Source: a virus
Reading direction: 5' to 3' (one strand)
IMG/VR virus record: IMGVR_UViG_3300023296_001674
DNA: 25,260 nucleotides
Within the stretch, counting starts at the first letter, position 1, and each line of letters opens with the position of its first letter. Both the position numbers and the translations under genes were made by a program. The notes below the pieces were generated by a model. That model was not told the DNA's origin. It made no database searches and saw nothing but the letters and a program-made list of their open reading frames with translations. Shown here in pieces: positions 3,110 through 19,738 of this stretch.

Positions 3110-3394
3110 GAGCAAACGAGATCGAATACAGTGTTAACGCGGAACGAGACTGCTAGGAACACTTAAAATATACCTAATATGGGCGCGTTGTGGATGGATT
3201 TCCTTTTGTGGAATGATAAAAGCAATGGTAGGAAGCAAAGCGACCTACTAGGGAAAGCGTTATATGCTTTCCTGATAAGTTATTTTGTATGGAAGTGCCA
3301 TTAAAGCAGAACAATTGGTTTGGCGACCAAGCACCTTCGGGGCATAAAATCTGCTACTACTATACTATTTTAATCATAACTAAGTGTCACAAAA

Positions 3395-3464
3395 TATTGT
3401 ATGGTGTAGTGGTAACACGCTGCCTTTATCGGCGGAGCCGTGGGTTCGAGTCCTACTATGATAT
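3395..3464 (+). tRNA. tRNA-like element (AU-rich acceptor, D and T arms fold; anticodon loop irregular; no CCA), possible pseudogene
   Basis: Acceptor TATTGTA/TATGATA; D stem GTGT/ACAC; T arm GTGGG-TTCGAGT-CCTAC. Anticodon stem CTGCC/GGCGG leaves only a 6-nt loop. Confidence 0.3.
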
Positions 3465-3565
3465 TTGGATTACGTTCAGTGTGCACACCGAACGCCACAA
3501 ATTATCTGTTATTATCGCGATAGTGATAGATAATGTTGGGTCACTTAGTTATGATTAAAGTTTTT

Positions 3566-3790
3566 AGGGTGTTCGTCTAGTGGATTAGGACGCGCCGCCT
3601 TGGGTAGTTGGAGTTCGATTCTCCTTAGCAACGGTTACGTAAATCCGCACGGTGAGACATTGGTTCGAATCCAATACATGTTAAAATAACGATTTCACAT
3701 GAGATGTATAGTTTTAATGGATAAATCAGGCATGAGCCTTGTGCGGCAAGATAGTGGGTTCGATTCCCCTTGCGTTGAATGTGAAATGAT
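3566..3790 (+). other. cluster of tRNA-derived remnants: three T-arm-like hairpins without complete cloverleaves
   Basis: T-arm-like hairpins: GGAG-TTCGATT-CTCC, ATTGG-TTCGAAT-CCAAT, GGG-TTCGATT-CCC. No matching acceptor stems or anticodon arms found by hand. Confidence 0.3.
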
Positions 3791-3822
3791 GCTATATTGG
3801 TTTTTTAATATAGGAGATAATA

Positions 3823-4377
3823 ATGGAACTAGAAACATATCTTAAAGATTATGGCTTAACTGATGATATTATACGTTATGCTATATTCACTGGTACATTA
3901 ACCAAATATAGTATTTCAGATTGGCGTGTTATATGTTATATAATCGACGATCCTGATTTAGATCGTGAAACAAAAGTAGCCATGATTGAAAAAGCATTTA
4001 AAGATGATAAATGGCGTGCCAAAGAATTATTTGTTTTTATTGAAACATTAAATCAATTTGTAAAAGCAGATGATATTCTTTCAGGGGCACACGAAAAAGA
4101 TTCATGGGGAAAAGGTACACCATCTGAGCAATTTGCCATATCAGTGTCGCTCTGTGAAGCACTTAAAAAAATGAAAACCGAAAATAAATTAAACAGCGAT
4201 GAACAAATTGATGTTTTTGACCGATTTGTTGTATACATTATGGATATGTTTTCACCCGAAATGGTTGTGTTGACATTCAGACATGCTATCAAACAATATG
4301 GTATAAAATTCGATATACATAAACATTCCGAATTTAAAAAAGCAATGAAAGCATATAATCGTATAATATTAGCATGA
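3823..4377 (+). CDS. hypothetical protein (184 aa)
   Basis: SD TAGGAGA upstream; TGA stop overlaps the next start (ATGA). Confidence 0.65.
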   Translation: MELETYLKDYGLTDDIIRYAIFTGTLTKYSISDWRVICYIIDDPDLDRETKVAMIEKAFKDDKWRAKELFVFIETLNQFVKADDILSGAHEKDSWGKGTPSEQFAISVSLCEALKKMKTENKLNSDEQIDVFDRFVVYIMDMFSPEMVVLTFRHAIKQYGIKFDIHKHSEFKKAMKAYNRIILA

Positions 4378-6008: not shown

Positions 6009-6083
6009 GCCTCTGTAGTTAATCTGGTATAACGGTAGATTTGTAATCTTCAATGCGCGGTTCGAGTCCGTGTGGAGGCACCA
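6009..6083 (+). tRNA. tRNA-Thr (anticodon UGU), second copy; CCA encoded
   Basis: Acceptor GCCTCTG/TGGAGGC; D GTTA-ATCTGGTA-TAAC; anticodon loop TTTGTAA; T arm CGCGG-TTCGAGT-CCGTG. Confidence 0.6.
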
Positions 6084-6089: not shown

Positions 6090-6854
6090 TTAATCATTGT
6101 GTAGTTGCGTTTTTTCATATTCATCGACATCAAGTTTTAATTGTTTATATGTGATAGATGATGTATTACGTTTTTTTACATTATCTTTCTGAAGCATTAT
6201 TTCACAATTTAATGGATGTGTAATATAATATGGATCATACTTGTTAACAATTGATTCATTTATAGATATTTTATGATCCCTCGCTACACCGTTTGAATTT
6301 TTCTTTGGGACATACCAACCATGTTTTTTTATTAAATCTAAATTGAGTAGATTGGGATAATCATTGACATCAAATTTGAAATAATATGGACGTTTCGTAG
6401 TTTGAAGTTCTTTTGCTGTTCTACCATATTGTTCAACGCAGCATTGACATTTTGATATATACCGATCTTTGGCGGTGAAAAGTGTAATACAGGTGGAGCA
6501 AGTTCTAAACCATACCATGGAATATTCACCATCGATATATTTTTTTAGTTTATCCCATCTTTTTGGATAATGACCAATATCTTTTATGATTTTGATATGA
6601 CTTTTACTCATTCGTTCTTTAGTTTCATTGCTATGTTTGCGACGGCTATTATTATATTTGGCGGCACAAGATTGATTACAATATTTCTTTTTTATAAGTG
6701 CTTCATCGTATGACCATGATTTGCCGCATTGGTTGCATGTTTTTGGATTTTTATTATATTCGGCAATGCGATGGTTTTTTTGATTTATTTGCGTTTTTCG
6801 TGAAGCTATAAATCCTAATTTACCAGCTTCAGATTTGGACAATTTACATGTCAT
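6090..6854 (-). CDS. HNH-family homing-endonuclease-like protein with N-terminal Cys-rich (CxxC…CxxSC) motifs; paralog 1 of 4
   Basis: 254 aa. C-terminal block …GVARDHKISINESIVNKYDPYYITHPLNCEIMLQKDNVKK shared with ORFs 8344, 11473 and 14027. Embedded in the tRNA array. Confidence 0.75.
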   Translation of the reverse strand: MTCKLSKSEAGKLGFIASRKTQINQKNHRIAEYNKNPKTCNQCGKSWSYDEALIKKKYCNQSCAAKYNNSRRKHSNETKERMSKSHIKIIKDIGHYPKRWDKLKKYIDGEYSMVWFRTCSTCITLFTAKDRYISKCQCCVEQYGRTAKELQTTKRPYYFKFDVNDYPNLLNLDLIKKHGWYVPKKNSNGVARDHKISINESIVNKYDPYYITHPLNCEIMLQKDNVKKRNTSSITYKQLKLDVDEYEKTQLHND

Positions 6855-6911
6855 GGCATATTTTTCCTTGTTATAAATAACTATGGCGGTAGATCAATCC
6901 TTGTGTCTTTA

Positions 6912-6937
6912 GTGATAAGTGCTTCAACACTTGTCAC
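6912..6937. promoter_or_regulatory. perfect 10-bp hairpin (GTGATAAGTG-CTTCAA-CACTTGTCAC) in the upstream region of the minus-strand HNH gene
   Basis: Inverted repeat with a single G·U pair; function unknown (operator, processing or homing-related site). Confidence 0.3.
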
Positions 6938-6967
6938 GCCGCTACTACTATTTATAACTTATACTAA

Positions 6968-7061
6968 GTCGGATTTCCCTAACTGGTGTGGGTAGAATCC
7001 ATAATATGCACTGGGTGATCCTTATGTGCTGCACGTGGTTCGATTCCACGATCCGGCTCCA
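6968..7061 (+). tRNA. tRNA-like, 94 nt (class-II-like length), CCA encoded; anticodon arm not resolved
   Basis: Acceptor GTCGGAT/ATCCGGC; 3-bp D stem CCC/GGG; T arm CGTGG-TTCGATT-CCACG; T73, CCA. Confidence 0.3.
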
Positions 7062-7103
7062 ATTAATTTTGTTCAATTAAATTCGAATCACTGATTGAAC
7101 AAT

Positions 7104-7199
7104 TGCTCATCCGGCGGGTTACATGAGCCACGCCATAACGGATTGAAATGAGCCATGCCGTTGGGTATGGATATCAGGAGTTTCGGTGATGAGCTACCA
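7104..7199 (+). pseudogene. tRNA-like remnant with 3' …ATGAGCT-A-CCA; internal 12-nt direct repeat (ATGAGCCACGCC / ATGAGCCATGCC)
   Basis: 5' TGCTCAT pairs with the 3' end, but no canonical T loop or anticodon arm. Confidence 0.2.
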
Positions 7200-7307
7200 A
7201 TTAACTAAGGTGAACGGTAGTAACCTTTAATGTGCGGCAGTGGTGCAATTCCCTAACTGATTGAGTTCGACTCTCATTCGGGTCTAGATGACAAAACATT
7301 ATAATAT

Positions 7308-7391
7308 GGACGGTGATGTTAAGACTATGGCTGGGCCAGCGCAAGCCTCTTAAGCTTGTATAAAAGAGTTCGATTCTCTCACCGTCTTCCA
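7308..7391 (+). tRNA. aberrant Lys-like tRNA (anticodon loop CTCTTAA = CUU) with ~9 extra nt in the D region; CCA encoded
   Basis: Acceptor GGACGGT/ACCGTCT; anticodon stem CAAGC/GCTTG; T arm (A)AGAG-TTCGATT-CTCT(C). 27 nt between acceptor and anticodon stem. Confidence 0.35.
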
Positions 7392-7457
7392 ATTATGCAG
7401 GCCATAGATGTTCCCTTTGTCCATTATTGGGAACTGTGGATGAAAACAAAAACGAAA

Positions 7458-7527
7458 GCAGGGTTAATGGACTGTGTGTAAGTTTTGTGATTAAAAGGGA
7501 TGGTGCAAATCCAATTCCCCTGCGCCA
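7458..7527 (+). pseudogene. degenerate tRNA-like element sharing the GCAGGG…CCCTGC-G-CCA acceptor of the Phe-type genes
   Basis: Acceptor and CCA present; T arm weak (GGG/CCA); no resolvable anticodon arm. Confidence 0.25.
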
Positions 7528-7531
7528 AATT

Positions 7532-7604
7532 TGTTTGATCGTCTTTGGAATACAAGATACCGTTGTCGAAGGCGGAGACGTTGGTTCGAATCCAACTTGA
7601 ACAC
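7532..7604 (+). pseudogene. Asp-like tRNA pseudogene (loop GTCGAA region), no CCA
   Basis: Acceptor TGTTTGA/TTGAACA (two G·U pairs); D GTCT/AGAT; T arm GTTGG-TTCGAAT-CCAAC. Anticodon stem CCGTT/GGCGG leaves only a 6-nt loop. Confidence 0.35.
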
Positions 7605-7693
7605 TTATTGTTAGTAATGATTTTATGTACATAAATGATTTGCTAGGCGAAAGCCAATAGTTTGCTGGTTCTATTTCTTAAAAATCCTCTTAT

Positions 7694-7770
7694 GGTAGGT
7701 GTAGTGTTAACGGTTAGCACGTCAGACTGTGACTCTGAAAGTGCCGGTTCAAATCCGGTCATTTACCCCA
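7694..7770 (+). tRNA. tRNA-His (anticodon GUG) with encoded G-1 and C73; CCA encoded
   Basis: G-1, acceptor GTAGGTG/CATTTAC; D GTGT/GCAC; anticodon stem TCAGA/TCTGA, loop CTGTGAC; T arm GCCGG-TTCAAAT-CCGGT; C73-CCA. Confidence 0.8.
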
Positions 7771-7854
7771 AATTTAATGCTGCTTGAGTTCAGGGTTCCA
7801 AGTAGATATTGTGGCTAAACCTAGCCGGTTCTAGCGTGATAATAAATTTTTAAT
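7771..7854 (+). other. structured spacer with multiple hairpins (GGCTA-AAC-TAGCC; CTTG…CAAG), possible tRNA remnant or small RNA
   Basis: No cloverleaf recoverable; several short palindromes. Confidence 0.2.
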
Positions 7855-7930
7855 GGCTACGTAGTAATCTGGGATTACGGTGCACTGTCGATGCACGTCG
7901 AGGAGGGTTCAATTCCCTTCGTAGCCGCCA
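7855..7930 (+). tRNA. tRNA-Asp (anticodon GUC), CCA encoded
   Basis: Acceptor GGCTACG/CGTAGCC; D GTAA-TCTGGGA-TTAC; anticodon stem GTGCA/TGCAC, loop CTGTCGA; T arm GAGGG-TTCAATT-CCCTT; G73. Confidence 0.85.
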
Positions 7931-7932
7931 AT

Positions 7933-8004
7933 ACCCCAGCCGATGCATTCGGACTCGAGTTTTCGAAACTTGACGGGAAGGTTTGATTCCTTCTTGGGGT
8001 GCCA
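7933..8004 (+). tRNA. tRNA-Arg (anticodon UCG) with atypical architecture (D hairpin directly after acceptor; T loop TTTGATT); CCA encoded
   Basis: Acceptor ACCCCAG/TTGGGGT; hairpin CCGA-TGCAT-TCGG; anticodon stem CGAGT/ACTTG, loop TTTCGAA; T arm GAAGG-TTTGATT-CCTTC. Confidence 0.55.
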
Positions 8005-8028
8005 ATTTAAAGAACGAGGGTGTAAACC

Positions 8029-8076
8029 GGTAGGAACTTACGTTGAACGGGATTTGCGGCAAAACCTACTTGCCAA
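8029..8076 (+). other. tRNA-like mini-element: GGTAGG…CCTACTT-G-CCA without D/T arms; the GGTAGGAA…CCTACT motif is also present at 3229-3250
   Basis: 6-bp terminal helix and an encoded CCA-like end; the internal ~35 nt lack a T loop. Confidence 0.2.
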
Positions 8077-8120
8077 TTAACCTGTGATTTTAATAGTCGG
8101 TAGCACCCCGCAGAAATAAT

Positions 8121-8195
8121 GGTCTATTCGTATAGTGGCTAATACACCGGATTGTCGATCCGGGAACGAGAGTTCAATTCTCTCATAGACCGCCA
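8121..8195 (+). tRNA. tRNA-Asp (anticodon GUC), second copy; CCA encoded
   Basis: Acceptor GGTCTAT/ATAGACC; D GTAT-AGTGGCTA-ATAC; anticodon stem CCGGA/TCCGG, loop TTGTCGA; T arm GAGAG-TTCAATT-CTCTC. Confidence 0.8.
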
Positions 8196-8200
8196 ATTAA

Positions 8201-8278
8201 GGCCCATCGGTCCAGCATGGAGTGGACATTTCCCTGTCACGGAAAAGATCACCGGTTCAAGTCCGGTATGGGTCGCCA
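8201..8278 (+). tRNA. tRNA with anticodon GUC (third Asp-type), 10-nt D loop; CCA encoded
   Basis: Acceptor GGCCCAT/ATGGGTC; D GTCC/GGAC; anticodon stem TTTCC/GGAAA, loop CTGTCAC; T arm ACCGG-TTCAAGT-CCGGT. Confidence 0.7.
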
Positions 8279-8286
8279 AAATTCAA

Positions 8287-8362
8287 TTCAGATGACCAAG
8301 CAAGTGAACGGGACCGCCTGTTAAGCGGATATTGCAGGGAGCGTTACCCTGATCTGGAGCCA
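8287..8362 (+). tRNA. tRNA-Asn (anticodon GUU) with non-canonical T loop AGCGTTA; CCA encoded
   Basis: Acceptor TTCAGAT/ATCTGGA; anticodon stem (A)CCGC/GCGG(A), loop CTGTTAA; T stem CAGGG/CCCTG perfect but loop lacks TTC; weak D stem. Confidence 0.5.
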
Positions 8363-8991
8363 ATAACTTTATATTTTTTGTCCCATTCATTTATTCGATG
8401 GTATAAATCATATAATGATAAACTTGAATGACGATTTTTAGATGAATTTTCTGGCTGTGGCATTATCTTGCAGTTCGCTGGATGTGATATATGATTTGGG
8501 TCTATTTTGTTTACAAATCCATCATGTACACTATACATGTGATCTCTTGTTAATCCGTTTTTATTTTTGGTACTATGATACATGCCCTGTTGATGTATCA
8601 TTATAAAATCAAATTCTTCTGGAAATGTTTGAAATGAAAATATAAATTTACATTGTTCTTTATATTTTATCTTCTCAATCATGTATTCTTGTGGTGTCAC
8701 CCTCATGGCATTTGTGCAAGTAACTGCACAACTTCTTCCGCAATAATATTCACGAGTTCCGGTTATAGGGCTAAATTTATTATTACATGTTGGATTTTTA
8801 CACTCGATTAGTCGTTTTTGATATTTTGTTAAATTTTTTACCGATATTTCTTTTTTGGTGAATATGCAACTACATGTAATATGTGATATTTTACCGTTGC
8901 TTTTGCCATGCATACGTGAATGACCATTCAATGCCATTAAGGATTTAAATTGATTATCGCATATATTACATGTATAAATATCTTTAGACAT
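8344..8991 (-). CDS. HNH-family homing-endonuclease-like protein with N-terminal C2H2 zinc finger (CNICDNQFKSLMALNGHSRMH); paralog 2 of 4
   Basis: Start trimmed to the Met at 8989-8991, which has a strong SD (GGAGG 6 nt upstream on minus strand). The ORF-track extension to 9204 runs through the plus-strand tRNA at 9081-9166. C-terminal HNH block shared with paralogs. Confidence 0.75.
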   Translation of the reverse strand: MSKDIYTCNICDNQFKSLMALNGHSRMHGKSNGKISHITCSCIFTKKEISVKNLTKYQKRLIECKNPTCNNKFSPITGTREYYCGRSCAVTCTNAMRVTPQEYMIEKIKYKEQCKFIFSFQTFPEEFDFIMIHQQGMYHSTKNKNGLTRDHMYSVHDGFVNKIDPNHISHPANCKIMPQPENSSKNRHSSLSLYDLYHRINEWDKKYKVIGSRSG

Positions 8992-9080
8992 TATCAACCT
9001 CCATTGGTTGTTATAGTTTAGAAGATATGGGGAATTCCAGTTCTCTATATCTTCGTTAGTATTTATCAATAACATATTAT

Positions 9081-9166
9081 TCGGATATAGGAGAATTGGT
9101 AGACCCAGAAGATTGTTAATCTTCCGCAGCAATGCATTCCAGGTTCGAGTCCTGGTATCCGAGCCA
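9081..9166 (+). tRNA. class-II (long variable arm) tRNA with Leu-like D loop (GAATTGGTAGAC), G73 and anticodon GUU (Asn codons); CCA encoded
   Basis: Acceptor TCGGATA/TATCCGA perfect; anticodon stem GAAGA/TCTTC perfect, loop TTGTTAA; variable arm 14 nt (GCA-GCAA-TGC); T arm CCAGG-TTCGAGT-CCTGG; G73-CCA. Confidence 0.55.
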
Positions 9167-9215
9167 ATAACACCGTAGCGTAGAAAATAGTTACTTCGTT
9201 TCACTCACGACTGGA

Positions 9216-9275
9216 ATGGGTTCGATTCCCATGCCCTGCGTAAGCAGGGTTTAGTGTAATGGTAGCACAGTATAT
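9216..9275 (+). other. permuted tRNA fragments: T-arm + 3' acceptor (ATGGG-TTCGATT-CCCAT-GCCCTGC) followed by GTAA and a 5' tRNA half (GCAGGGT-TT-AGTG-TAATGGTAG-CAC); the acceptor halves form a terminator-like hairpin
   Basis: CCCTGC-GTAA-GCAGGG hairpin followed by TTT; neither fragment has its partner half. Confidence 0.35.
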
Positions 9276-9353
9276 CTCTATTTTCGTTTTTTACTCGGTG
9301 TTGTTATTAATAAATAGAATTATACAAATTATTAGATTGGAGTTGTTATTTAA

Positions 9354-9677
9354 ATGAGTGACGAACGACGAAATAGTTCCAGATTTTCGACTGGGCGTGT
9401 ATCATATTTACGATTGAACGATTATTATTTTCCATTGGTTGATATTAGTGATGATGGATTTTTTGCGGAATGCAGTGATGGTTCATTGAGTATTGGCGAT
9501 GTTGTTGATATTGAAATACATATCAGTGATCGACATGGAATAGCTACATTTAACACTGAAACAGAGATACTGCGTGTTGGCGGTAGATTTATTGCAGGAA
9601 AATGGGATTTAGAATTAAACAGGGCTACGGATTGCGTTAAAACTTATTTTGACAATAGGCACGCACAAGTAGCATAA
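9354..9677 (+). CDS. PilZ-domain-like protein (candidate c-di-GMP binding), 107 aa
   Basis: N-terminal RRNSSR (RxxxR) followed by DISDDG and DGSLSIG, matching the PilZ RxxxR…(D/N)xSxxG signature; SD TGGAG upstream. Confidence 0.5.
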   Translation: MSDERRNSSRFSTGRVSYLRLNDYYFPLVDISDDGFFAECSDGSLSIGDVVDIEIHISDRHGIATFNTETEILRVGGRFIAGKWDLELNRATDCVKTYFDNRHAQVA

Positions 9678-9684
9678 TACAAAT

Positions 9685-9759
<75 letters not shown>

Positions 9760-9849
9760 TATCGATGCGTAGTGTTAAGTTACTTCGATTTTTTTTAAAT
9801 AAAAAACCCAAAAACTCTTAATATGTCTTTTTCACGATGTTGATTTCAT

Positions 9850-9923
9850 AGGGGTATCGTATAGTGGTAATACGGTGGATTCCAAACTCACAGACCGGGG
9901 TTCGATCCCTCGTTCCCCTGCCA
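9850..9923 (+). tRNA. tRNA-Trp (anticodon CCA), CCA encoded
   Basis: Acceptor AGGGGTA/TTCCCCT; D GTAT/ATAC; anticodon stem GTGGA/CTCAC, loop TTCCAAA; T arm CGGGG-TTCGATC-CCTCG. Confidence 0.7.
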
Positions 9924-9939
9924 ATTTAACGAGAATAAC

Positions 9940-11166
9940 ATGCATTTTATAATAAGTATCGATAGTGTATCAACGGATAGTCGGCATTATGACTGTGCCA
10001 AAAGTGATGAAAACTGTTGGCTTGATATATACGATGGCAATATCTATAACGATACTATATTAACCAATGCATTTTCATATAAAAACAAAACGATAAAACT
10101 TGATAAAGGTTGGCATACATTAGACCGCGACAAAGATGTTGTATGGTTTAAGGGTTATTCAACAGAAGCAAGATTGATTGATAGGGTTGAAGCCCGTAAT
10201 TATTCATCAATGGATGGAAATTATTGTTTTATTGTGTTTGATAAAACGACAGAATGTATTAACATATATCATGATACCAATCGTGGATTTGGTATATATT
10301 ATACAGATTCTATTATAACCAATTTATATACAATCAAAACATGCGTTAAGTTTGACGGGTGTATCATGGTAGATCACAATGACGAAATAATTGTTTCATC
10401 GTTACAGACAACGTTCACATTGCCTGATATAATTAAAGACAAATCTATTGACGATATGGCTGCTATTATAGCGCCTATGATGATTAAGAAAATCGAAGGA
10501 TTTATGAAATATAATAATGTGGTTGATTTAGAAATACAAGCAACTGGCGGTTTAGATACATTAACGGTGCGTGCATTATTAGATATCTGCGCGATTGATT
10601 ATAAATTGATTGATATAAAACCATTTAAAGATGGATGCAACTGGACTAATGATACAAATTCAATGATGGATATATTATCAAAATATCATTGGGGATTTCA
10701 GCAATGCAATTATTATGATGATATTACATATGTTGCCACTGGTTTTTGGGGCGATGAGTTATTGATGCGCAATCCGCTTCAAGTTCATTGGATATTGAAT
10801 CATTATGATATTGATTTATCGAATGAATATACAAAGCACCCTGATTCATATATGCTAGGATATTTTCAACAAGCGTATAAAGAGAAACTTATAGAACGCG
10901 ATAAAATATTTTCCAATGAAAATGAATTATATCAATATTCATTAGATTATGCACTTGATGAACCACAGATAACGCATGTTGATAATGTTATAATGTTTTC
11001 ACCATTTAAGGGTATTGACATATATATGAAAACACTCAATATGACGAATGAGGCAATATTAGAACAGGTTATAAATGGTGCACTGCAAAAGAAAATTATA
11101 TACGATATTAATCCTAAGTTATTGGATTGCTTAGAAAAATATAAAAATAGAAGAATACCAGTGTAA
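9940..11166 (+). CDS. PP-loop ATP pyrophosphatase-family protein, asparagine-synthetase-like C-domain (408 aa); N-terminal domain lacks the Ntn catalytic Cys
   Basis: …LEIQATGGLDTLTVRALL… resembles the SGGxDS PP-loop at the position expected for AsnB-type enzymes. Confidence 0.5.
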   Translation: MHFIISIDSVSTDSRHYDCAKSDENCWLDIYDGNIYNDTILTNAFSYKNKTIKLDKGWHTLDRDKDVVWFKGYSTEARLIDRVEARNYSSMDGNYCFIVFDKTTECINIYHDTNRGFGIYYTDSIITNLYTIKTCVKFDGCIMVDHNDEIIVSSLQTTFTLPDIIKDKSIDDMAAIIAPMMIKKIEGFMKYNNVVDLEIQATGGLDTLTVRALLDICAIDYKLIDIKPFKDGCNWTNDTNSMMDILSKYHWGFQQCNYYDDITYVATGFWGDELLMRNPLQVHWILNHYDIDLSNEYTKHPDSYMLGYFQQAYKEKLIERDKIFSNENELYQYSLDYALDEPQITHVDNVIMFSPFKGIDIYMKTLNMTNEAILEQVINGALQKKIIYDINPKLLDCLEKYKNRRIPV

Positions 11167-11228
11167 TATACCCCGCCCGAAAAGTAAAAATAGCTGTTAA
11201 GTATTTCATAAATAAGCATAAATACTAT

Positions 11229-11498
11229 ATGGATAATAGTACATTAATAGCGTTAGGAAGTTTGTTGTTTGCCATGATTGGTGGATTTTGGGGTGTCATA
11301 ACATACATCCTTGGAATCATCAAGGTGGAAAACGTTGAACGTCGTGGTGTCCAAGAAAAATTATATATGCGCGATGATGTAGCCAAAGATGTAATGAACG
11401 AAAGTTTAACAGAAGTAAAAAGTACCATCCGTGATACGAATGATAGACTCATACGTGTAGAAACAATATTATATGAAAGAACTGATAGAACAAAATAA
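11229..11498 (+). CDS. small membrane protein (N-terminal TM helix plus charged coiled-coil tail), 89 aa
   Basis: Hydrophobic segment LIALGSLLFAMIGGFWGVITYILGII followed by a charged tail; overlaps the next gene start. Confidence 0.5.
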   Translation: MDNSTLIALGSLLFAMIGGFWGVITYILGIIKVENVERRGVQEKLYMRDDVAKDVMNESLTEVKSTIRDTNDRLIRVETILYERTDRTK

Positions 11499-12108
11499 AA
11501 TATGGTTTTTAAGCAAAACGGTAATACGTTGTATAAATAGTTATATGGTTGATTTAAGAAAGAGTTTGCAAACACCAAAAGTTTGCTGTATTGAATGTAA
11601 AACAATATTTAGAACTAATCATTTTGTTAGACACTCGAAGAAGCGATGTATTGAGTGGAAAAAGAAAAACGGCATGATCCCAAAAGGGAAGCGTGGCGGT
11701 TGGAATAAAGGATTAACGAAAATGACTAGTTCGTTGGTCAAAAAAGGAACCGATACTTATCGTCGCCGTTATGAAAATGGTGAATATACACGACGCACAC
11801 AAACCGATGATATAAAGAAACAATATTGGCAAGATTGTAAATTTAAATTCAATGTTTATAATTATCCTGAAATATTTGACTTAAATTTACTCGATAAATT
11901 TGGGTGGTATCATCCTGTAGAAAATCCAAGTGGCGTAAGTAGAGATCATATTATTTCTGTATCATATGGATGGAAAAATGGTATAGATTCGAATATTATT
12001 AATCATATAGCCAATTGTAAATTGATGATTCATTTAGAAAATAACAAAAAAAATAATCGATCTGATTTATTATTAGAAGAATTATTACAAAAAATACACT
12101 CTATGTAG
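11473..12108 (+). CDS. HNH-family homing-endonuclease-like protein with N-terminal Cys-rich motif (CCIECKT…H…H); paralog 3 of 4; TAG stop
   Basis: C-terminal block YWQDCKFKFNVYNYPEIFDLNLLDKFGWYHPVENPSGVSRDHIISVSYGWKNGIDSNIINHIANCKLMIHLENNKKN shared with the other three. Confidence 0.8.
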   Translation: MKELIEQNKIWFLSKTVIRCINSYMVDLRKSLQTPKVCCIECKTIFRTNHFVRHSKKRCIEWKKKNGMIPKGKRGGWNKGLTKMTSSLVKKGTDTYRRRYENGEYTRRTQTDDIKKQYWQDCKFKFNVYNYPEIFDLNLLDKFGWYHPVENPSGVSRDHIISVSYGWKNGIDSNIINHIANCKLMIHLENNKKNNRSDLLLEELLQKIHSM

Positions 12109-12139
12109 GGGTGGTGTGAATCTGAACCCTTACTCCAAT

Positions 12140-12213
12140 GTTCCGTTGACAGAATGGTTATGTGCGTGGCTGCAACCCGCGTTATCCCGGTTCGATTCCG
12201 GGACGGAACTCCA
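12140..12213 (+). tRNA. tRNA-Cys (anticodon GCA), CCA encoded
   Basis: Acceptor GTTCCGT/ACGGAAC; anticodon stem CGTGG/CCGCG, loop CTGCAAC; T arm CCCGG-TTCGATT-CCGGG. Confidence 0.8.
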
Positions 12214-12221
12214 ATACATAT

Positions 12222-12296
12222 GCCCGGTTCGTCCAACGGTTAGGACACTCTCCCGATAAGAGAGGAATAGTGGTTCGATTCCACTACTGGGTACCA
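12222..12296 (+). tRNA. tRNA-Ile (anticodon GAU; C at position 33), CCA encoded
   Basis: Acceptor GCCCGGT/ACTGGGT; D GTCC-AACGGTTA-GGAC; anticodon stem CTCTC/GAGAG, loop CCGATAA; T arm AGTGG-TTCGATT-CCACT. Confidence 0.7.
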
Positions 12297-12317
12297 ATCA
12301 AACAATTTGACCTTAAT

Positions 12318-12391
12318 GGTCCGTTAGCTTAATAGAAAAGCACATGGCTGATAACCGTGCGACGGTGGAGCGTAACCATCACGGACTACCA
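12318..12391 (+). tRNA. tRNA-Ile (anticodon GAU), second copy, non-canonical T loop AGCGTAA; CCA encoded
   Basis: Acceptor GGTCCGT/ACGGACT; D GCTT/AAGC; anticodon stem CATGG/CCGTG, loop CTGATAA; T stem GGTGG/CCATC. Confidence 0.65.
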
Positions 12392-12452
12392 ATTATGACA
12401 TGATAGTTTAAACAGCTTATTAAATCCATGGATTGTGAGCAAAAGTAGAACA

Positions 12453-12470
12453 TGCCCGTATTCGGGGCAA
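12453..12470 (+). other. GC hairpin GCCCG-TATT-CGGGG in spacer (no T run)
   Basis: Seen in sequence; function unknown. Confidence 0.2.
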
Positions 12471-12507
12471 GATGAGGTGAAATGCCTTGAATGTCGCCAA
12501 GTTTAAT

Positions 12508-12581
12508 GCGGGTATCGTATAATGGAATTACTACACATTGCCTATGTGTAGACGGGGGTTCGATTCCCCCTACCCGCTCCA
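12508..12581 (+). tRNA. tRNA-Gly (anticodon GCC), second copy sharing the acceptor stem and T73 of the gene at 9685; CCA encoded
   Basis: Acceptor GCGGGTA/TACCCGC; anticodon stem ACACA/TGTGT, loop TTGCCTA; T arm GGGGG-TTCGATT-CCCCC. Confidence 0.8.
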
Positions 12582-12593
12582 ATAAATAGAAAT

Positions 12594-12848
12594 ATGAACA
12601 GAGAAACATTTGCCAATGCGTTAGAATACTATAGAAATATCAATATCCCACATGGATTTGATACGTGGGCTTATTTTGATGATATGCCGCCTGTTTTAAA
12701 GGAACGTGTTCGTGAATCGATGTCAAATAGAAATAGTGTAGCCATACATCAGATATTCAATGACGATGGCATGGAAGTGGCTATTGCAGTTCTAAATTTT
12801 TTAGACGAAACTGAAAAAGCGCAATATTATAAAACATACGACGATTAA
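12594..12848 (+). CDS. hypothetical protein (84 aa)
   Basis: ORF immediately downstream of tRNA-Gly; weak SD. Confidence 0.45.
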   Translation: MNRETFANALEYYRNINIPHGFDTWAYFDDMPPVLKERVRESMSNRNSVAIHQIFNDDGMEVAIAVLNFLDETEKAQYYKTYDD

Positions 12849-12851
12849 TAT

Positions 12852-12938
12852 AGAAGTACTTTGTATTGGTGAACTCAGCAGTCTCCAAAACTGTGTCGCA
12901 TTTGTGACTGGTAGGTTCGAATCCTACTACTTCTGCCA
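12852..12938 (+). tRNA. class-II tRNA (16-nt variable arm with 5-bp stem, G73) carrying anticodon CCA (UGG codon); CCA encoded
   Basis: Acceptor AGAAGTA/TACTTCT perfect; anticodon stem GCAGT/ACTGT, loop CTCCAAA; variable arm GTCGC-ATTT-GTGAC; T arm GTAGG-TTCGAAT-CCTAC perfect. Confidence 0.55.
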
Positions 12939-12993
12939 ATTTAACTCCCCATGATAAATATCATTTGTGACATAACGCGAATGGGGTAATATC

Positions 12994-13326
12994 ATGATGG
13001 ACGATGATACAAAAAACAGGTTCATAAAAACATTCAGTGATTATATCACAATGATTAAAGGCAAGCATGAATGTGCAAGACTTGTTGATATTAAAATGAT
13101 GGATTTATATACAATTGCGCCACATATATGCATTGTAGATATAGAACATCCATCGTTACGAAAGAAAATTATATTTTTTGGAACACAATTGGTATTAAAC
13201 GCTAATGCTGATTTAACTGGAACATACCTCGACTATGATGAATTAAACATTGATGATATATCCTTTCCATTATATGGTGATGGTGATATTATTGATCACA
13301 TTATAAGTGTTTCATTCAAAAATTAA
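12994..13326 (+). CDS. hypothetical protein (110 aa)
   Basis: ORF. A CCCCAT…ATGGGG hairpin spanning ~12949-12988 sits just upstream (12949-12954 and 12983-12988 are the stems) and may occlude the RBS. Confidence 0.5.
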   Translation: MMDDDTKNRFIKTFSDYITMIKGKHECARLVDIKMMDLYTIAPHICIVDIEHPSLRKKIIFFGTQLVLNANADLTGTYLDYDELNIDDISFPLYGDGDIIDHIISVSFKN

Positions 13327-13327
13327 T

Positions 13328-13400
13328 ATACCTCCGCTGATGGTTCAGACATAAGCTTGCGAAGCTTGTTGGGAAAGTTCGATTCTTTTCGGGGGTTCCA
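13328..13400 (+). tRNA. tRNA-Arg-like (anticodon GCG) with the same atypical D architecture as 7933-8004; CCA encoded
   Basis: Acceptor ACCTCCG/CGGGGGT; hairpin CTGA-TGGTT-TCAG; anticodon stem TAAGC/GCTTG, loop TTGCGAA; T arm GAAAG-TTCGATT-CTTTT. Confidence 0.5.
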
Positions 13401-13439
13401 ATATTGTTATAGCTATGGAAATTAGTTCCTTCTTATCCC

Positions 13440-13479
13440 AACCTGTAGGTCGTAGGTTCGAATCCTGCTCCTCGCGCCA
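13440..13479 (+). pseudogene. tRNA 3' fragment (T arm GTAGG-TTCGAAT-CCTGC + TCCTCGC-G-CCA) with no 5' partner
   Basis: No complementary 5' acceptor strand within 100 nt upstream. Confidence 0.3.
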
Positions 13480-13484
13480 ATTAT

Positions 13485-13531
13485 GCGGGGATAGCTCAGT
13501 GGTAGAGCAACTGGCAATTTTACTGGTTCCA
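13485..13531 (+). pseudogene. truncated tRNA: intact 5' half (GCGGGGA-TA-GCTC-AGTGGTA-GAGC-A…) joined after the anticodon loop directly to …TTCCA
   Basis: 47 nt; D arm perfect; T arm and 3' acceptor missing. Confidence 0.35.
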
Positions 13532-13562
13532 ATTATTATAGCAATATTTTATTAAATAGGTC

Positions 13563-13757
13563 ATGAACAAGTATGACACGGCGTATAGAAATCGCATTGC
13601 TGCCCAACGCAAACAGTGGGCAAACAATACGAAACAGCGTTTGTGGAATAAACGAATAAAGATATTGTATATTGCATGTGTATGTATTATAATCTCTTTA
13701 TCGGTTGCGGCAGAAGTATTTGGATATTTAAATATAATATTTGGTTTTTTGTTGTAA
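13563..13757 (+). CDS. small membrane protein (64 aa; basic N-terminus, C-terminal TM helix)
   Basis: ORF; hydrophobic C-terminus ILYIACVCIIISLSVAAEVFGYLNIIFGFLL. Confidence 0.45.
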   Translation: MNKYDTAYRNRIAAQRKQWANNTKQRLWNKRIKILYIACVCIIISLSVAAEVFGYLNIIFGFLL

Positions 13758-13764
13758 CATGATA

Positions 13765-13843
13765 TTGACTAGTAGCTCAGTGGTTTAGAGCGGGGAGTTC
13801 TAAACTCTCGACAGCGTTGGTTCAAATCCAACCTGGTCAACCA
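13765..13843 (+). tRNA. putative amber-suppressor tRNA (anticodon CUA, reads UAG); CCA encoded
   Basis: Acceptor TGACTAG/CTGGTCA; D GCTC-AGTGGTTTA-GAGC; anticodon stem GGGAG/CTCTC, loop TTCTAAA (U33, C34-U35-A36, A37); 7-nt variable region; T arm GTTGG-TTCAAAT-CCAAC; A73-CCA. Confidence 0.6.
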
Positions 13844-13850
13844 ATACTAA

Positions 13851-14022
13851 GCGGGTATCGTATAATGGTATTATCGCAGCCTTCCATGTGATATGTTTAA
13901 CATATCTCAGGTTGAGCCATTTATTGGCTCCTTGAAGGTCGAGGGTTCAGACCCCATCCGGTTTAAGCCCGGTAGACCAACTTAAGCTGATGACGGGAGT
14001 TCGATTCTCCCTACCCGCTCCA
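13851..14022 (+). tRNA. tRNA-Gly (anticodon UCC) interrupted between positions 37 and 38 by a ~98-nt structured insert; same acceptor as the other Gly genes; CCA encoded
   Basis: 5' exon GCGGGTA-TC-GTAT…GCAGC-CTTCCA (13851-13886). 3' exon A-GCTGA-TGAC-GGGAG-TTCGATT-CTCCC-TACCCGC-T-CCA (13985-14022). First 18 nt identical to the tRNA at 12508. Confidence 0.55.
13887..13984 (+). other. intron-like insertion inside tRNA-Gly(UCC): four consecutive hairpins
   Basis: Hairpins: GATATG-TTTAA-CATATC; GAGCCA-TTTA-TTGGCTC; GGTC…GACC with a T-loop-like GGG-TTCAGAC-CCC; CCGG-TTTAAGC-CCGG. Too short for a canonical group I intron. Confidence 0.4.
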
Positions 14023-14026
14023 ATAT

Positions 14027-14818
14027 TTGATAAATAGTTATATGAAATGTAAACAATGTAAAATATCATTTACCCCTATCCCACAAGCAAAAAAAGGTAT
14101 ATTTTGTTCGCACGATTGTCATAATGTATACCAGCGCGTAAATACTCGTGAGCAATACTTAAAAAATCCCAAACGGTGTATTTTTTGTGATGATATAATA
14201 TCATATAGAGAAAATATAAAAGTGGCGAAGTTTTGCAATAGGTCTTGCGGGGCAAAATATAATAATAAAAGACGTACAGAATGCGGATACACCCCAAGTC
14301 ATAAAAAATGGTCTAGTGGTAAAATATCTGCTAAAATGTCATCAAAAATGCGCCGTGCGGATATCAAATCAAGTGTCGTGTTTGGTGATTTTACTATAAT
14401 AACATTTGCTATATGCAATATTACGAATAAACCATATGTTCTACAAACACCGCATGGTGGTATAAAGCAAATATCACCATATATTAAATCATCTAAACAG
14501 ATATATTATGAGCAAGCCAAATTTCGATTTAATGTATATGACTATCCAGATATATTTGATATAACACTTTTAGAAAAATATGGATGGTATACATGTCCCG
14601 GCAAGAAACGAAAAAATCAAAAAAAGAATATAAATGGTGTAAGTAGAGATCATATAATATCTATCAATGATGGATTTAAGAATGGGTATGATCCATATAT
14701 TTTAGCACATCCTGCTAATTGTCGATTGATTAAACAAGTGGATAATGTTAAAAAATTAGATAAATCTAATATGTCATATGACGAGTTATTGATTAACATA
14801 AAACAATGGAATGGATAG
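14027..14818 (+). CDS. HNH-family homing-endonuclease-like protein with N-terminal Cys-rich zinc-finger-like motifs; paralog 4 of 4; TAG stop
   Basis: N-terminus MKCKQCKISF…FCSHDCHNVYQ…FCNRSCGAKYNN. C-terminal block …NGVSRDHIISINDGFKNGYDPYILAHPANCRLIKQVDNVKK. Confidence 0.8.
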   Translation: MINSYMKCKQCKISFTPIPQAKKGIFCSHDCHNVYQRVNTREQYLKNPKRCIFCDDIISYRENIKVAKFCNRSCGAKYNNKRRTECGYTPSHKKWSSGKISAKMSSKMRRADIKSSVVFGDFTIITFAICNITNKPYVLQTPHGGIKQISPYIKSSKQIYYEQAKFRFNVYDYPDIFDITLLEKYGWYTCPGKKRKNQKKNINGVSRDHIISINDGFKNGYDPYILAHPANCRLIKQVDNVKKLDKSNMSYDELLINIKQWNG

Positions 14819-14825: not shown

Positions 14826-14900
14826 GCCCCTATAGTACAATGGTTAATATGATCGCCCGGTAAGCGATAGATGAAAGTTCGATTCTTTCTAGAGGCACCA
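14826..14900 (+). tRNA. tRNA-Thr (anticodon GGU; C at position 33), CCA encoded
   Basis: Acceptor GCCCCTA/TAGAGGC (one C·A mismatch); anticodon stem ATCGC/GCGAT perfect, loop CCGGTAA; T arm GAAAG-TTCGATT-CTTTC. Confidence 0.65.
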
Positions 14901-16799: not shown

Positions 16800-17129
16800 A
16801 TGGATAAAGCTGCGCTAAAAACACTTTCCGATACTCTTAATCGGATATGGGGAATCCCTGAACCAAGGGTCTATTATCCGAATAAACATTTCGAAAAACC
16901 TGAACCAGTTGAACAGACAATGTTCTCAGTGTTCATTCTTGACGCTGGTCCTAAACGGATTAACGTCATTAAAGAAATCAGATCAATCTTAGGATTGACC
17001 CTGAAAGAATCAAAGGATTTTGTTGATAATATAGACAAGAGCCTTGTTCAAGAAGACTTAGAAAAATGGGATGCAGATGCATTAGCCGAAACATTATCAA
17101 ATGTTGGAGCAACTGTTGAAGTTTCTTAA
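16800..17129 (+). CDS. ribosomal protein bL12 (L7/L12) C-terminal-domain homolog with a non-canonical N-terminus
   Basis: C-terminal 70 aa FSVFILDAGPKRINVIKEIRSILGLTLKESKDFVDNIDKSLVQEDLEKWDADALAETLSNVGATVEVS align by eye with bacterial bL12 CTD (FDVIL…KVAVIK.VR..TGLGLKEAKDLVE…EAG..VEVK). Confidence 0.65.
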   Translation: MDKAALKTLSDTLNRIWGIPEPRVYYPNKHFEKPEPVEQTMFSVFILDAGPKRINVIKEIRSILGLTLKESKDFVDNIDKSLVQEDLEKWDADALAETLSNVGATVEVS

Positions 17130-17171
17130 AATATACCAGTTTGGTGTCTGGGGTATAAACAAAACACCACC

Positions 17172-17225
17172 TTCCTCTTTCGTATAGTGGTTATGATCTT
17201 TGTGTCGCAATCAGAGGACGATTTT
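17172..17225 (+). pseudogene. truncated paralog of the tRNA at 17331 (5' two-thirds; T arm replaced by TTTTTTG)
   Basis: TCGTATAGTGGTTATGATCTTTGTGTCGCAATCAGAGGACG matches 17338-17378 with a few substitutions; preceded by the hairpin GGTGT…ACACC. Confidence 0.3.
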
Positions 17226-17241
17226 TTGTGGAGGCAATTAT

Positions 17242-17325
17242 GCGCGTAGCCGGTATGTTGGTACTACCACTGGTCTTCCAAACCAGCGCGAAAGCATTGG
17301 GGTTTGATTCCCCCTACCCGCTCCA
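17242..17325 (+). tRNA. tRNA-Gly (anticodon UCC) with an 11-nt variable arm (84 nt); Gly-family acceptor; CCA encoded
   Basis: Acceptor GCGCGTA/TACCCGC-T-CCA; D GGTA/TACC; anticodon stem CTGGT/ACCAG perfect, loop CTTCCAA; variable CGCGAAAGCAT; T arm (T)GGGG-TTTGATT-CCCC(C). Confidence 0.6.
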
Positions 17326-17330
17326 ATCAA

Positions 17331-17405
17331 GCCCCATTCGTATAGTGGTCATTATCTCTGTGTCGTACTCAGAGGACGGCAGTTCGATTCCGCCATGGGG
17401 CACCA
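17331..17405 (+). tRNA. tRNA-Thr-like (anticodon CGU if the loop is 7 nt; loop region could be 9 nt), CCA encoded
   Basis: Acceptor GCCCCAT/ATGGGGC perfect; D GTAT/(T)TAT; anticodon stem CTCTG/CAGAG with TGTCGTACT between; T arm GGCAG-TTCGATT-CCGCC. Confidence 0.55.
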
Positions 17406-17471
17406 ATTACATATTGCATTATATCCTATTTTTTTATATAATAAATAAAAAGAACAATAGGACACGAAACT

Positions 17472-18023
17472 ATGCGCGGAACATTAGAAGTGATTACTGG
17501 CCCAATGTTTGCCGGTAAGACGACAGAAATAATAAAACGATTATTATGGTCAAAACATCAAGGTAAATCAACAATTATATACAAACCAGCAATGGATGAT
17601 AGATATAGTGAAACTGAAATAGTTACACATACCAAATTTTCATACGAAGCAACATCCATCATTGATAGTTTTAATATCAATCCAACATACGATCATTATT
17701 TTTTTGATGAAATACAGTTTCATGATAAAAATATTGTTCCATCTATAACTAAATTATTAGATGAAGGAAAAAATGTAACGGTGGCTGGTTTAGACGCTGA
17801 TTATAAAGGTGTTGCATTTGCGAACACTGCTACGTTAATGGCGATGGCAGACGAAGTATTTAAGATAAAATCGCATTGTAGTTTATGTGGCAAAGATGCT
17901 GCTAAAACATTTAAAACTGGTTCGACAAGCGACCAGCGCATAGAATTGGGTGAAAATGACTTATACCGTGCCAGATGTAATGAGCATTGGTATGTATCAG
18001 GAACTGACGATAGTTTTTCTTGA
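17472..18023 (+). CDS. tdk: thymidine kinase
   Basis: N-terminal P-loop ITGPMFAGKTTEIIKR and C-terminal Cys cluster CSLCGKDA…RCNEHW typical of type II thymidine kinases; TGA stop. Confidence 0.9.
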   Translation: MRGTLEVITGPMFAGKTTEIIKRLLWSKHQGKSTIIYKPAMDDRYSETEIVTHTKFSYEATSIIDSFNINPTYDHYFFDEIQFHDKNIVPSITKLLDEGKNVTVAGLDADYKGVAFANTATLMAMADEVFKIKSHCSLCGKDAAKTFKTGSTSDQRIELGENDLYRARCNEHWYVSGTDDSFS

Positions 18024-18048
18024 CAATATTTTTTATATAGCATATAAT
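18020..18048 (+). promoter_or_regulatory. sigma70-type promoter TTGACA-N17-TATAAT
   Basis: TTGACA 18020-18025, TATAAT 18043-18048; precedes the desaturase gene. Confidence 0.7.
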
Positions 18049-18079
18049 GTTAGTATACAAAATTTTTAGGAGATATTAA

Positions 18080-19063: not shown

Positions 19064-19073
19064 GGGAAACTAT

Positions 19074-19550
19074 ATGTTTAAATTTAATGTATGTAATTAC
19101 AGTGATTCACTGTATTCAATGGACAACTATACCAAGGCTATTGGTATAGTTGATCCAGATGAAAAAGTAACACCATCAGAAAAATATCATGTTGCACGAT
19201 GCCACGATATAGTAATGCAGGAACACCCTTGGGTGGCTCCCACAATAGACCAGTTTGTCGCAATTATGAATTTTGCAGAAGATTTTACAGACGATGATGT
19301 TGTAATGATTCATTGCTCTGCTGGTATATCACGCAGCACTGCAACTGCCATATTGTTATTAATGTTGCATGGCGCTGACGAAGAAGAAGCATTTAATGCT
19401 GTTGAACAAAATAGACCAAACATGAATCCAAACACATTGATTCTTCGCTTTGCTGATGAATTATTAGGAATGGATGGCGGTTTGATTGAATATCATAAAC
19501 AATGGATGGCGAAACGGGTTATTAAACCAGTTAGTTTCGCAGGACAATAA
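19074..19550 (+). CDS. Cys-based (CX5R) protein phosphatase, dual-specificity/tyrosine-phosphatase-like
   Basis: Active-site signature VMIHCSAGISRSTA. Start chosen at the Met at 19074, which has SD AAGGGAAA; the ORF-track start at 19044 overlaps the upstream gene. Confidence 0.65.
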   Translation: MFKFNVCNYSDSLYSMDNYTKAIGIVDPDEKVTPSEKYHVARCHDIVMQEHPWVAPTIDQFVAIMNFAEDFTDDDVVMIHCSAGISRSTATAILLLMLHGADEEEAFNAVEQNRPNMNPNTLILRFADELLGMDGGLIEYHKQWMAKRVIKPVSFAGQ

Positions 19551-19734: not shown

Positions 19735-19738
19735 ACTT

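Follow-up and report, generated by a model that had tools for sequence, protein, structure and literature searches.

Candidate homing endonuclease genes of a divergent HNH-like family in the tRNA array of a huge phage

What are four related protein genes doing among the tRNA genes of a huge phage, and what keeps them there? The question is raised by a 25,260-nucleotide (nt) stretch of viral DNA (IMG/VR virus record IMGVR_UViG_3300023296_001674), referred to at its full length as the window, in which four paralogous open reading frames (ORFs), ORF1 to ORF4, occupy spacers between tRNA genes. The window is part of a huge-phage tRNA array, and an exact copy of the ORF4 protein sits on a contig of 570,750 bp. 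An original prediction, made from the sequence alone, described the four as zinc-finger-bearing genes of the HNH family whose products would act as free-standing homing endonucleases on tRNA-gene DNA and drive duplication or decay within the array. The ORFs themselves are present on both strands at the coordinates that it gave (Table 1). Our analysis indicates, with a probability of roughly 0.7, that they are free-standing homing endonuclease genes of the family PHROG 23051, each encoding a variable zinc-finger N-terminus (treble-clef, C2H2, or NUMOD3-like) followed by a divergent HNH/ββα-metal (ββα-Me) domain of about 110 amino acids (aa). Nuclease activity, cleavage sites, and homing are properties that we infer for the four window copies.

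A conserved block behind variable zinc fingers

The four proteins are 27-37% identical overall (MAFFT), and their C-terminal blocks are 37-47% identical to one another (BLASTP, E 1e-19 to 1e-29); ORF1 and ORF4 can be aligned over their full length (33%, E 1e-42, BLASTP). All four match PHROG 23051, a family listed as of unknown function (E 5e-28 to 2e-36), as do all 37 members tested. Throughout an alignment of 56 members the residues F, F, P, G, N, G, R-D-H, H, N-C, N, and K are invariant, and they are intact in each of the window proteins. The paralogy and the common C-terminal motif that had been proposed are thus borne out by BLASTP, PHROG, and this alignment alike. A profile search of 1.84 billion representative proteins returned 921 family clusters (formed at 50% identity) at E<=1e-30 and 1,643 at E<=1e-10, and, judged by sequence, PHROG 23051 is a large family for whose conserved block Pfam holds no model. 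Translated matches to ORF4 in the phage collection came from jumbo or huge phages (Vibrio phage 2.275.O, GAP32/BF/Erwinia phages, Lak phages, and LR7565xx genomes) with one exception, the T4-like Acinetobacter phage 133 (160 kb), for which the match was short. The family therefore spans the unrelated Lak, GAP32-like, Vibrio, and T4-like phage groups.

Cys/His clusters are found at the N-terminus of all four proteins, as had been noted, and the C2H2 finger of ORF2 lies above the Pfam threshold (zf-C2H2_6, 26.7 bits against a cut-off of 25). Elsewhere in the family this region is occupied by treble-clef/FCS/YacG-like fingers, C2H2 fingers, NUMOD3, the homing-endonuclease-associated module HNH_repeat, or a helix-turn-helix/sigma-70 region 4 domain. 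By sequence comparison, DNA-binding modules are shuffled at the N-termini of family members.

The evidence that the C-terminal block is a nuclease comes from its predicted fold and its motif. AlphaFold 2 models reached a predicted local distance difference test score (pLDDT) of 84.7 for the full-length protein and 92.7 for the C-terminal domain. In the predicted fold R-D-H closes the first strand; two short helices come next, then an invariant N followed by the second strand, and a helix that bears another invariant N; in the model of the C-terminal domain, β1 terminates in R-D-H, N231 stands just before β2, and N240 is on the following helix. A ββα-metal core is present in this predicted structure, and its residues are invariant in the 56 sequences. 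The N-x8-N-x2-K spacing of the block equals that of canonical HNH domains, N-x8-(H/N). In SpCas9 the equivalents are D839-H840 for D-H and N854 and N863 for the two asparagines; by analogy, D-H would supply a metal ligand and the general base, with a structural role for the N ahead of β2 and metal binding by the helix N.

A further argument is provided by locus L008, from a related phage, where a 194-aa protein carries an N-terminal module 49% identical to that of ORF1 (over 68 aa) fused to a canonical Pfam HNH/HNH_3 domain. Since a canonical HNH domain stands behind an ORF1-type module in this protein, the novel block appears to fill the nuclease slot of the same architecture. The tRNA array of L008 encodes another canonical HNH endonuclease (Table 1), in which HNH is combined with two NUMOD3 motifs. 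Several endonuclease families co-occupy these arrays, swapping DNA-binding modules.

Several results weigh against this reading of the block. Pfam gave it no HNH match, either in the four ORFs (E<=1) or in 37 members (E<=0.1), the curated HNH families checked including PF01844, PF13392, PF13395, and PF14279. A PDB profile search with the block was empty at E<=10, and an NCBIfam scan of it yielded no match. When the block was compared by hhalign with a profile of 120 canonical HNH proteins, all homologs of the one in L008, the probability was 0.6%, the sole and non-significant local alignment setting D-H on D-H. The structural support for a nuclease fold, moreover, consists of predicted models rather than solved structures. 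PHROG matches labelled "HNH endonuclease" cover the zinc-finger region and not the catalytic block; one weak "endonuclease VII" PHROG match spans residues 31-207 of ORF3, and GIY-YIG families were absent from the Pfam, PHROG, and NCBIfam scans. Because no sequence-profile method places the block in an HNH family, the HNH label rests on predicted structure and motif. The HNH assignment of the original prediction is accordingly retained as regards the HNH-like motif and the predicted ββα-Me fold and not as regards family membership by sequence profile, and the Pfam check that it proposed returned the zinc finger of ORF2 and no HNH domain. From the models, we consider the block likely to belong to the ββα-Me superfamily as a divergent H-N-N member.

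If the C-terminal domain were not a DNA nuclease, these proteins might instead be sequence-specific DNA- or RNA-binding factors that regulate how particular tRNAs are transcribed or processed, or that act on tRNA as RNA. The absence of profile matches to HNH families would be expected of such proteins, yet invariant D-H, N, and N residues at canonical HNH spacing are hard to explain in a domain that only binds, and the presence in L008 of a canonical HNH domain in place of the block, behind the same N-terminal module, is equally difficult to accommodate. We regard this alternative as improbable.

Partner tRNA genes and mobility

DNA was read at 16 independent loci outside the window (Vibrio phage 2.275.O, GAP32, pEa_SNUABM_19, Lak-C1, LR756501, LR756500, L008, L014, L016, L017, L018, L033-L035, L036, and L037), all of which lie within tRNA arrays; the one exception among the loci read is a copy in phage 133 that splits the gene rnlA. 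No protein gene other than the family member is common to these loci and the window. The partner tRNA gene, by comparison, is constant within clades. The ORF4 clade adjoins tRNA-Gly(TCC) at nine of nine independent loci, the window included, in three arrangements: directly 3' of the tRNA gene on the same strand (window and L008), convergent and overlapping or abutting its 3' end (L014, L016, L018, and L037), and divergent at 130-240 nt from its 5' end (L033-L035). ORF3 and its closest homolog, P0083 (47%), both lie on the 5' side of tRNA-Cys(GCA), which makes two of two loci for the ORF3 clade, and the GAP32 clade adjoins tRNA-Met(CAT). Of 225 members, 37 have the C-terminal peptide ...KYTER.G(F/I/L)EP.T, the sequence obtained when a tRNA T-arm and acceptor stem are translated in antisense.

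Because clades keep one tRNA isotype across otherwise unrelated contigs, tRNA-gene DNA is the likely target of these enzymes. The pattern of one tRNA per clade fits isotype-specific homing and is hard to explain by vertical synteny. A point on the other side is that the tRNA-Gly(TCC) genes linked to family members have little in common beyond the anticodon loop; as they are just 41-86% identical, a shared recognition site outside that loop is not evident from their sequences.

Strict partnership with a single tRNA isotype would also be expected of a binding factor of the kind considered above, and the location of the phage 133 member inside rnlA, a tRNA-repair ligase gene, could be taken in the same sense. 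However, tandem, convergent, and divergent placement relative to the tRNA gene does not fit a cis-regulatory role, and the gene is dispensable within one phage species. This dispensability is seen in Erwinia phages of the species Eneladusvirus BF. In pEa_SNUABM_19 a 741-bp member lies antisense between two tRNA-Met genes, and in pEa_SNUABM_47 the same two tRNA genes are 171 bp apart with no ORF between them. Similarly, phage CBB, of the genus of GAP32, has an unrelated 222-bp ORF at the site where GAP32 has a family member. In both the Erwinia and GAP32 phages the junction of the member falls exactly at a tRNA 3' end. In Acinetobacter phage 133 (L003 2154-4231), Acj133p227 divides rnlA, the gene for RNA ligase 1, into rnlA-A and rnlA-B; its membership of the family is indicated by hhalign (probability 98.4%, E 8e-15), and it carries the variant motif HLDH...HNLRF...DN..K. 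The four window ORFs are independent genes in spacers of the tRNA array, and ORF1 and ORF2 are the only plausible minus-strand genes of the window, all other plausible protein genes lying on the plus strand along with all 27 tRNA genes called by Aragorn.

The mobility of the family is thus supported indirectly, by its shuffled N-termini, by presence and absence within one species, by the split of rnlA, and by the orientation of ORF1 and ORF2 against an otherwise uniform strand. No close relative of the window phage was found: a megablast of the window against INPHARED gave zero nucleotide matches, an IMG/VR scan with a 408-aa neighbour protein found nothing, and the homologs of that protein are at most 30% identical. 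The evidence of presence and absence therefore concerns family members elsewhere rather than the four copies in the window, which tempers its bearing on them.

Could these genes nevertheless be vertically inherited, fixed parts of huge-phage tRNA arrays, their paralogy stemming from old duplication within the array and not from mobility? The convergent overlap with tRNA-Gly(TCC) has been kept across many diverged clusters (the antisense tail is present in 36 of the first 83 homologs), and the ORF4 ortholog P0002 has the same position in L008 as ORF4 has in the window. Against this stand the differences between loci in every neighbour except the partner tRNA, the three arrangements adopted by one clade, the polymorphism within Eneladusvirus BF, the insertion into rnlA, and the distribution over unrelated phage groups, so that vertical inheritance appears very improbable. 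Fixed positions in all relatives, which the original prediction would have taken as a sign that the genes are not mobile, are ill-suited as a test: position relative to the partner tRNA is conserved, as homing predicts, and the other neighbours differ.

The homing reading can be put in mechanistic terms as follows. When a related phage without the gene infects the same cell, the enzyme would nick or cut the DNA of that phage in or beside one tRNA gene, and recombinational repair from the endonuclease-carrying genome would copy the endonuclease gene and the adjoining tRNA gene into the recipient. The ORF4 clade would target Gly-TCC, the ORF3 clade Cys-GCA, and the GAP32 clade Met-CAT. Since the clades have different tRNA partners, several diverged copies could coexist in one array and on either strand.

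An unusual T-loop, AUCGUAG (A54/U58 for U54/A58), was observed in tRNA-Met of pEa_SNUABM_19 (L021 2893-2966) and CBB (L020 2501-2573). The idea that the altered T-loop (ATCGTAG in DNA) protects the DNA of the Erwinia phage from its own enzyme was rejected, as GAP32 combines the gene with the canonical loop and CBB has the variant without the gene.

Unusual elements of the tRNA array

The original prediction took several oddities of the array for tRNA fragments, halves, or duplicates and held that the endonucleases drive such duplication or decay. Each oddity is present at about the place described, but its nature differs from what was supposed. The "split Gly tRNA" ahead of ORF4 is instead a conserved tRNA-Gly(TCC) gene with a structured 98-nt insertion after anticodon-loop position 37. 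The Rfam tRNA model spans 13851-14022 (38.9 bits, with a 100-nt insertion), and its fold is a cloverleaf to which three hairpin domains are added (z-score -4.1). In L008-L013 a tRNA with the same insertion stands ahead of P0002, the ORF4 ortholog that is 62% identical to ORF4; the L008 copy (1202-1373) scores 52.2 bits with Rfam and shows compensatory changes in three base pairs relative to the window. At other ORF4-clade loci tRNA-Gly(TCC) is uninterrupted.

Searches of the 98-nt insertion against Rfam introns and ribozymes returned nothing at E<=10 save an insignificant twister-sister match (12.9 bits), and no bulge-helix-bulge motif is evident at its boundaries. Group I introns have a P3-P9 catalytic core and usually measure at least 200 nt; this class was rejected for the insertion, which is too short and lacks an Rfam Intron_gpI match. 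An alternative cloverleaf formed by insertion domain 3 and the 3' exon, called "tRNA-Ser" by Aragorn in L008, was set aside as it is not conserved in the window. Further copies of the insertion-bearing tRNA-Gly were sought with a pattern in IMG/VR, which gave only chance matches in GC-rich coding DNA, and in a metagenome scan, which gave 0 matches in a set that lacks the source contig. It is conceivable, at rather long odds, that the insertion is a removable intervening sequence, of a kind undescribed in phages, that is paired with ORF4 in collaborative homing at a tRNA gene. The ORF4 enzyme would then cut the uninterrupted anticodon-loop DNA of tRNA-Gly(TCC) genes in competing phages, between GCCTTCCA and AGC, and the insertion would divide this site in the copy that the phage itself carries; on a wider view, the clades of the family would each recognise a different tRNA gene as DNA.

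The "permuted halves" and the "truncated tRNA" (Table 1) share another layout, in which a T-arm, a closed acceptor-like hairpin, and a D-arm follow one another and the complementary acceptor strands are joined as a hairpin, as in the tRNA-like module of YrlA-type RNAs. YrlA, a bacterial Y RNA, combines such a module with a Ro60-binding stem; both elements match positions 24-84 only of the YrlA model, at 15.4 and 32.4 bits respectively, below the Rfam gathering score of 69. The first element has a GNRA (GUAA) cap, closing helices of 8 and 9 bp, and a z-score of -3.0, and the "permuted halves" resemble YrlA-type tRNA mimics. Circular permutation of a tRNA gene was rejected for them: when the halves were re-joined in silico, the anticodon called by Aragorn shifted with the arbitrary length of the junction, and thus no coherent anticodon arm is present. 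The second element has a loop consisting of CCA plus a spacer and a z-score of -0.2, and it may just as well mark where two decayed tandem tRNAs meet, a known class of false positives for YrlA matches (PMC4201824).

Some elements of the array are degenerate. Of these, just the tRNA-Asn-like remnant at 8287-8362 is closely linked to an endonuclease gene, overlapping the last 19 nt of ORF2 in antisense; it was called by neither Aragorn nor Rfam and was read from the sequence and aligned with tRNA-Asn. The degenerate copies at 17160-17325 lie 2.4 kb from any of the four genes. Overall, the free-standing, mobile character attributed to these genes is sustained by the modular architecture of the family, by the comparison of pEa_SNUABM_19 with pEa_SNUABM_47, and by the rnlA split, whereas the claim that they drive duplication or decay is not established: the Gly tRNA is conserved with its cloverleaf, the halves resemble YrlA-type mimics, and decayed copies also occur at a distance.

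Duplication also bears on the possibility that these are domesticated nucleases which, like T6 SegB, are kept for amplification of tRNA segments or for preferential inheritance of the array. The benefit would lie in countering tRNA-targeting defences or in excluding competing phages, and such a role would refine the homing reading without excluding it. Amplification of a tRNA-Tyr segment by SegB allows escape from Septu, and co-location of SegB with tRNAs is widespread (PMC13096335). Many tRNAs of the window array are duplicated (Phe x2, Lys x3, Val x3, Asp x3, Ile x2, and Gly-GCC x2), the catalytic residues are intact in all four copies despite deep divergence, and the family is very large and persistent. 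On the other hand, the window contains no tandem segmental repeat that includes any of the four genes, duplicated and decayed tRNAs are also found away from them, and presence and absence inside one phage species shows that the gene is dispensable. We consider domestication unlikely.

The remaining features of the array are listed in Table 1. In addition to the tRNA genes called by Aragorn, several were obtained from Rfam, and the tRNA-like units of the array outnumber those reported by either program. Almost every window tRNA gene encodes CCA followed by AT(A/T), and the resulting common CCAAT 3' boundary may be a shared processing signal. The tRNA with anticodon CTA would read the amber stop codon and is compatible with stop-codon recoding, which is reported for some huge phages. 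Oversized tRNAs (86-95 nt) were also called at the related huge-phage loci L004, L005, and L014, and a match to 6S RNA was obtained at L035 5147-5297(-), beside the tRNA array of a phage-like contig (48.4 bits against an Rfam gathering score of 46.4). As regards gene starts, the longest reading frame of ORF2 reaches GTG 9204, but gene callers choose ATG 8991; ORF3 and an 89-aa ORF upstream overlap by 26 nt; and the true start of ORF4 is probably ATG 14042 rather than TTG 14027, because the database protein P0001 has 258 aa. The close association of all four genes with tRNA genes, another element of the original prediction, is confirmed by the distances in the table.

Table 1. Positions of the features discussed (window coordinates, except for the last two lines)
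Feature	Position	Strand	Remarks
tRNA-Thr(TGT)	6009..6083	+	3' CCA end 6 nt from ORF1 stop codon, convergent
ORF1	6090..6854	-	254 aa; N-terminal helix and treble-clef CxxC...YCxxSC fingers; C-terminal nuclease-like domain 6093-6404
Long-arm tRNAs	6967-7061, 7305-7391, 12852-12938		missed by Aragorn
Degenerate tRNA-like copies	7931-8004, 17160-17235		
Degenerate tRNA-like element	8287..8362	+	Asn-type GTT anticodon loop, aberrant T-loop (AGCGTTA), CCA-AT 3' end
ORF2	8344..8991	-	215 aa; C2H2 finger, CxxxxC...YYCxxSC finger, C-terminal nuclease-like domain 8347-8670
tRNA-Asn(GTT), long variable arm	9081..9166	+	89 nt upstream of ORF2 start
"Permuted halves" element	9217-9275		core 9210-9271; within 9167-9306; T-arm, closed acceptor-like hairpin, D-arm
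ORF3	11473..12108	+	211 aa; CxxC...H...C cluster, GGWNKG motif, C-terminal nuclease-like domain 11797-12105
tRNA-Cys(GCA)	12140..12213	+	31 nt past ORF3 stop; partner of ORF3 clade
"Truncated tRNA" element	~13445-13530		core 13445-13511; T-arm, closed acceptor-like hairpin, D-arm
tRNA with anticodon CTA	13766-13843		Aragorn label "Pyl"; Rfam tRNA model 57 bits
tRNA-Gly(TCC) with 98-nt insertion	13851..14022	+	insertion 13887-13984; ORF4 start 4-19 nt downstream; partner of ORF4 clade
ORF4	14027..14818	+	263 aa (TTG) or 258 aa (ATG 14042); two treble-clef fingers, C-terminal nuclease-like domain 14474-14815
tRNA-Thr(GGT)	14826..14900	+	7 nt past ORF4 stop
Gene calls downstream of array	16800-24368		translation-related and metabolic genes: ribosomal protein L7/L12, thymidine kinase, fatty-acid desaturase, dual-specificity phosphatase, His-tRNA-synthetase-like protein
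Second Gly(TCC)-like gene	17241-17325		degenerate; 12-nt variable region
His(GTG)-like tRNA	20329-20436		~35 nt inserted after position 37; CCA not encoded
tRNA with D-loop insertion	20576-20667		
L008 canonical HNH endonuclease in tRNA array	3258-3842	-	ORF1-type N-terminal module and HNH/HNH_3
L008 canonical HNH endonuclease in tRNA array	6308-7069	+	

Significance and comparison with known systems

The assignment proposed here provides a working annotation for a very large dark protein family that is typical of the tRNA arrays of huge and jumbo phages, and it would add a divergent H-N-N branch to the HNH superfamily. The partnership between clades and tRNA genes (Gly-TCC, Cys-GCA, and Met-CAT) makes the prediction of targets directly testable, and it suggests that isotype-specific selfish nucleases shape the tRNA arrays of huge phages and cause them to be exchanged one gene at a time. 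This is of relevance given recent evidence that endonuclease-driven amplification of tRNAs defeats tRNA-targeting defences. Several elements of such arrays that look like "tRNA fragments" may be structured RNAs with a function and not debris, which corrects a likely over-reading.

The pairing of ORF4 with an insertion-bearing tRNA gene recalls F-CphI and the psbA group I intron of cyanophage S-PM2, which reportedly engage in "collaborative homing". In both cases the gene for a free-standing endonuclease lies beside a gene that carries an ORF-less insertion. The insertion in the window differs in that, at 98 nt, it is far below the size of a group I intron and belongs to no Rfam family; its removal by splicing is hypothetical, and elsewhere in the ORF4 clade the partner tRNA-Gly(TCC) can be uninterrupted.

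MobE of T4 and Aeh1 and the I-HmuI-like enzymes also combine a nuclease with modular DNA-binding repeats, are inserted in or between conserved genes, and show polymorphism of presence and absence. MobE-type insertions split genes, as Acj133p227 splits rnlA. The window family reverses the order of domains found in these enzymes, its DNA-binding modules being N-terminal and its nuclease C-terminal, and its nuclease domain, unlike that of canonical HNH homing endonucleases, falls outside existing sequence families.

That free-standing endonucleases reside in phage tRNA clusters is already established from T4 and T5; what is new here is the assignment of the family, how large it is, its almost exclusive occurrence in jumbo- and huge-phage tRNA arrays, and the partnership of one clade with one tRNA. 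The window family would work much as the T4 and T5 enzymes do but belongs to neither of their protein families. For T5, F-TflI/II/IV are HNH-type site-specific endonucleases with ORFs inside the phage tRNA cluster (cited in PMC2330249). The window family resembles them in this location of its ORFs. The F-Tfl enzymes are set apart by their description, being presumably canonical HNH proteins, whereas the window-family domain is undetected by Pfam HNH models, is without a Cys4 zinc site, and has an H-N-N motif whose first two catalytic positions are separated by a 22-residue insert. T4 SegB is a free-standing GIY-YIG homing endonuclease encoded among tRNA genes that cleaves the tRNA-region DNA of related phages, leading to preferred inheritance of that region (PMC2330249); across phages, the co-location of SegB homologs with tRNAs is statistically significant, and they can amplify tRNA segments, thereby defeating Septu (PMC13096335). 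SegB and the window family are alike in that a free-standing endonuclease gene is embedded among phage tRNA genes. They differ in fold, which is GIY-YIG in SegB and predicted to be ββα-Me/HNH-like in the window family, and in the zinc-finger modules that the latter carries. SegB, furthermore, has no preference for a tRNA isotype (PMC13096335), whereas each clade of the window family keeps to one partner.

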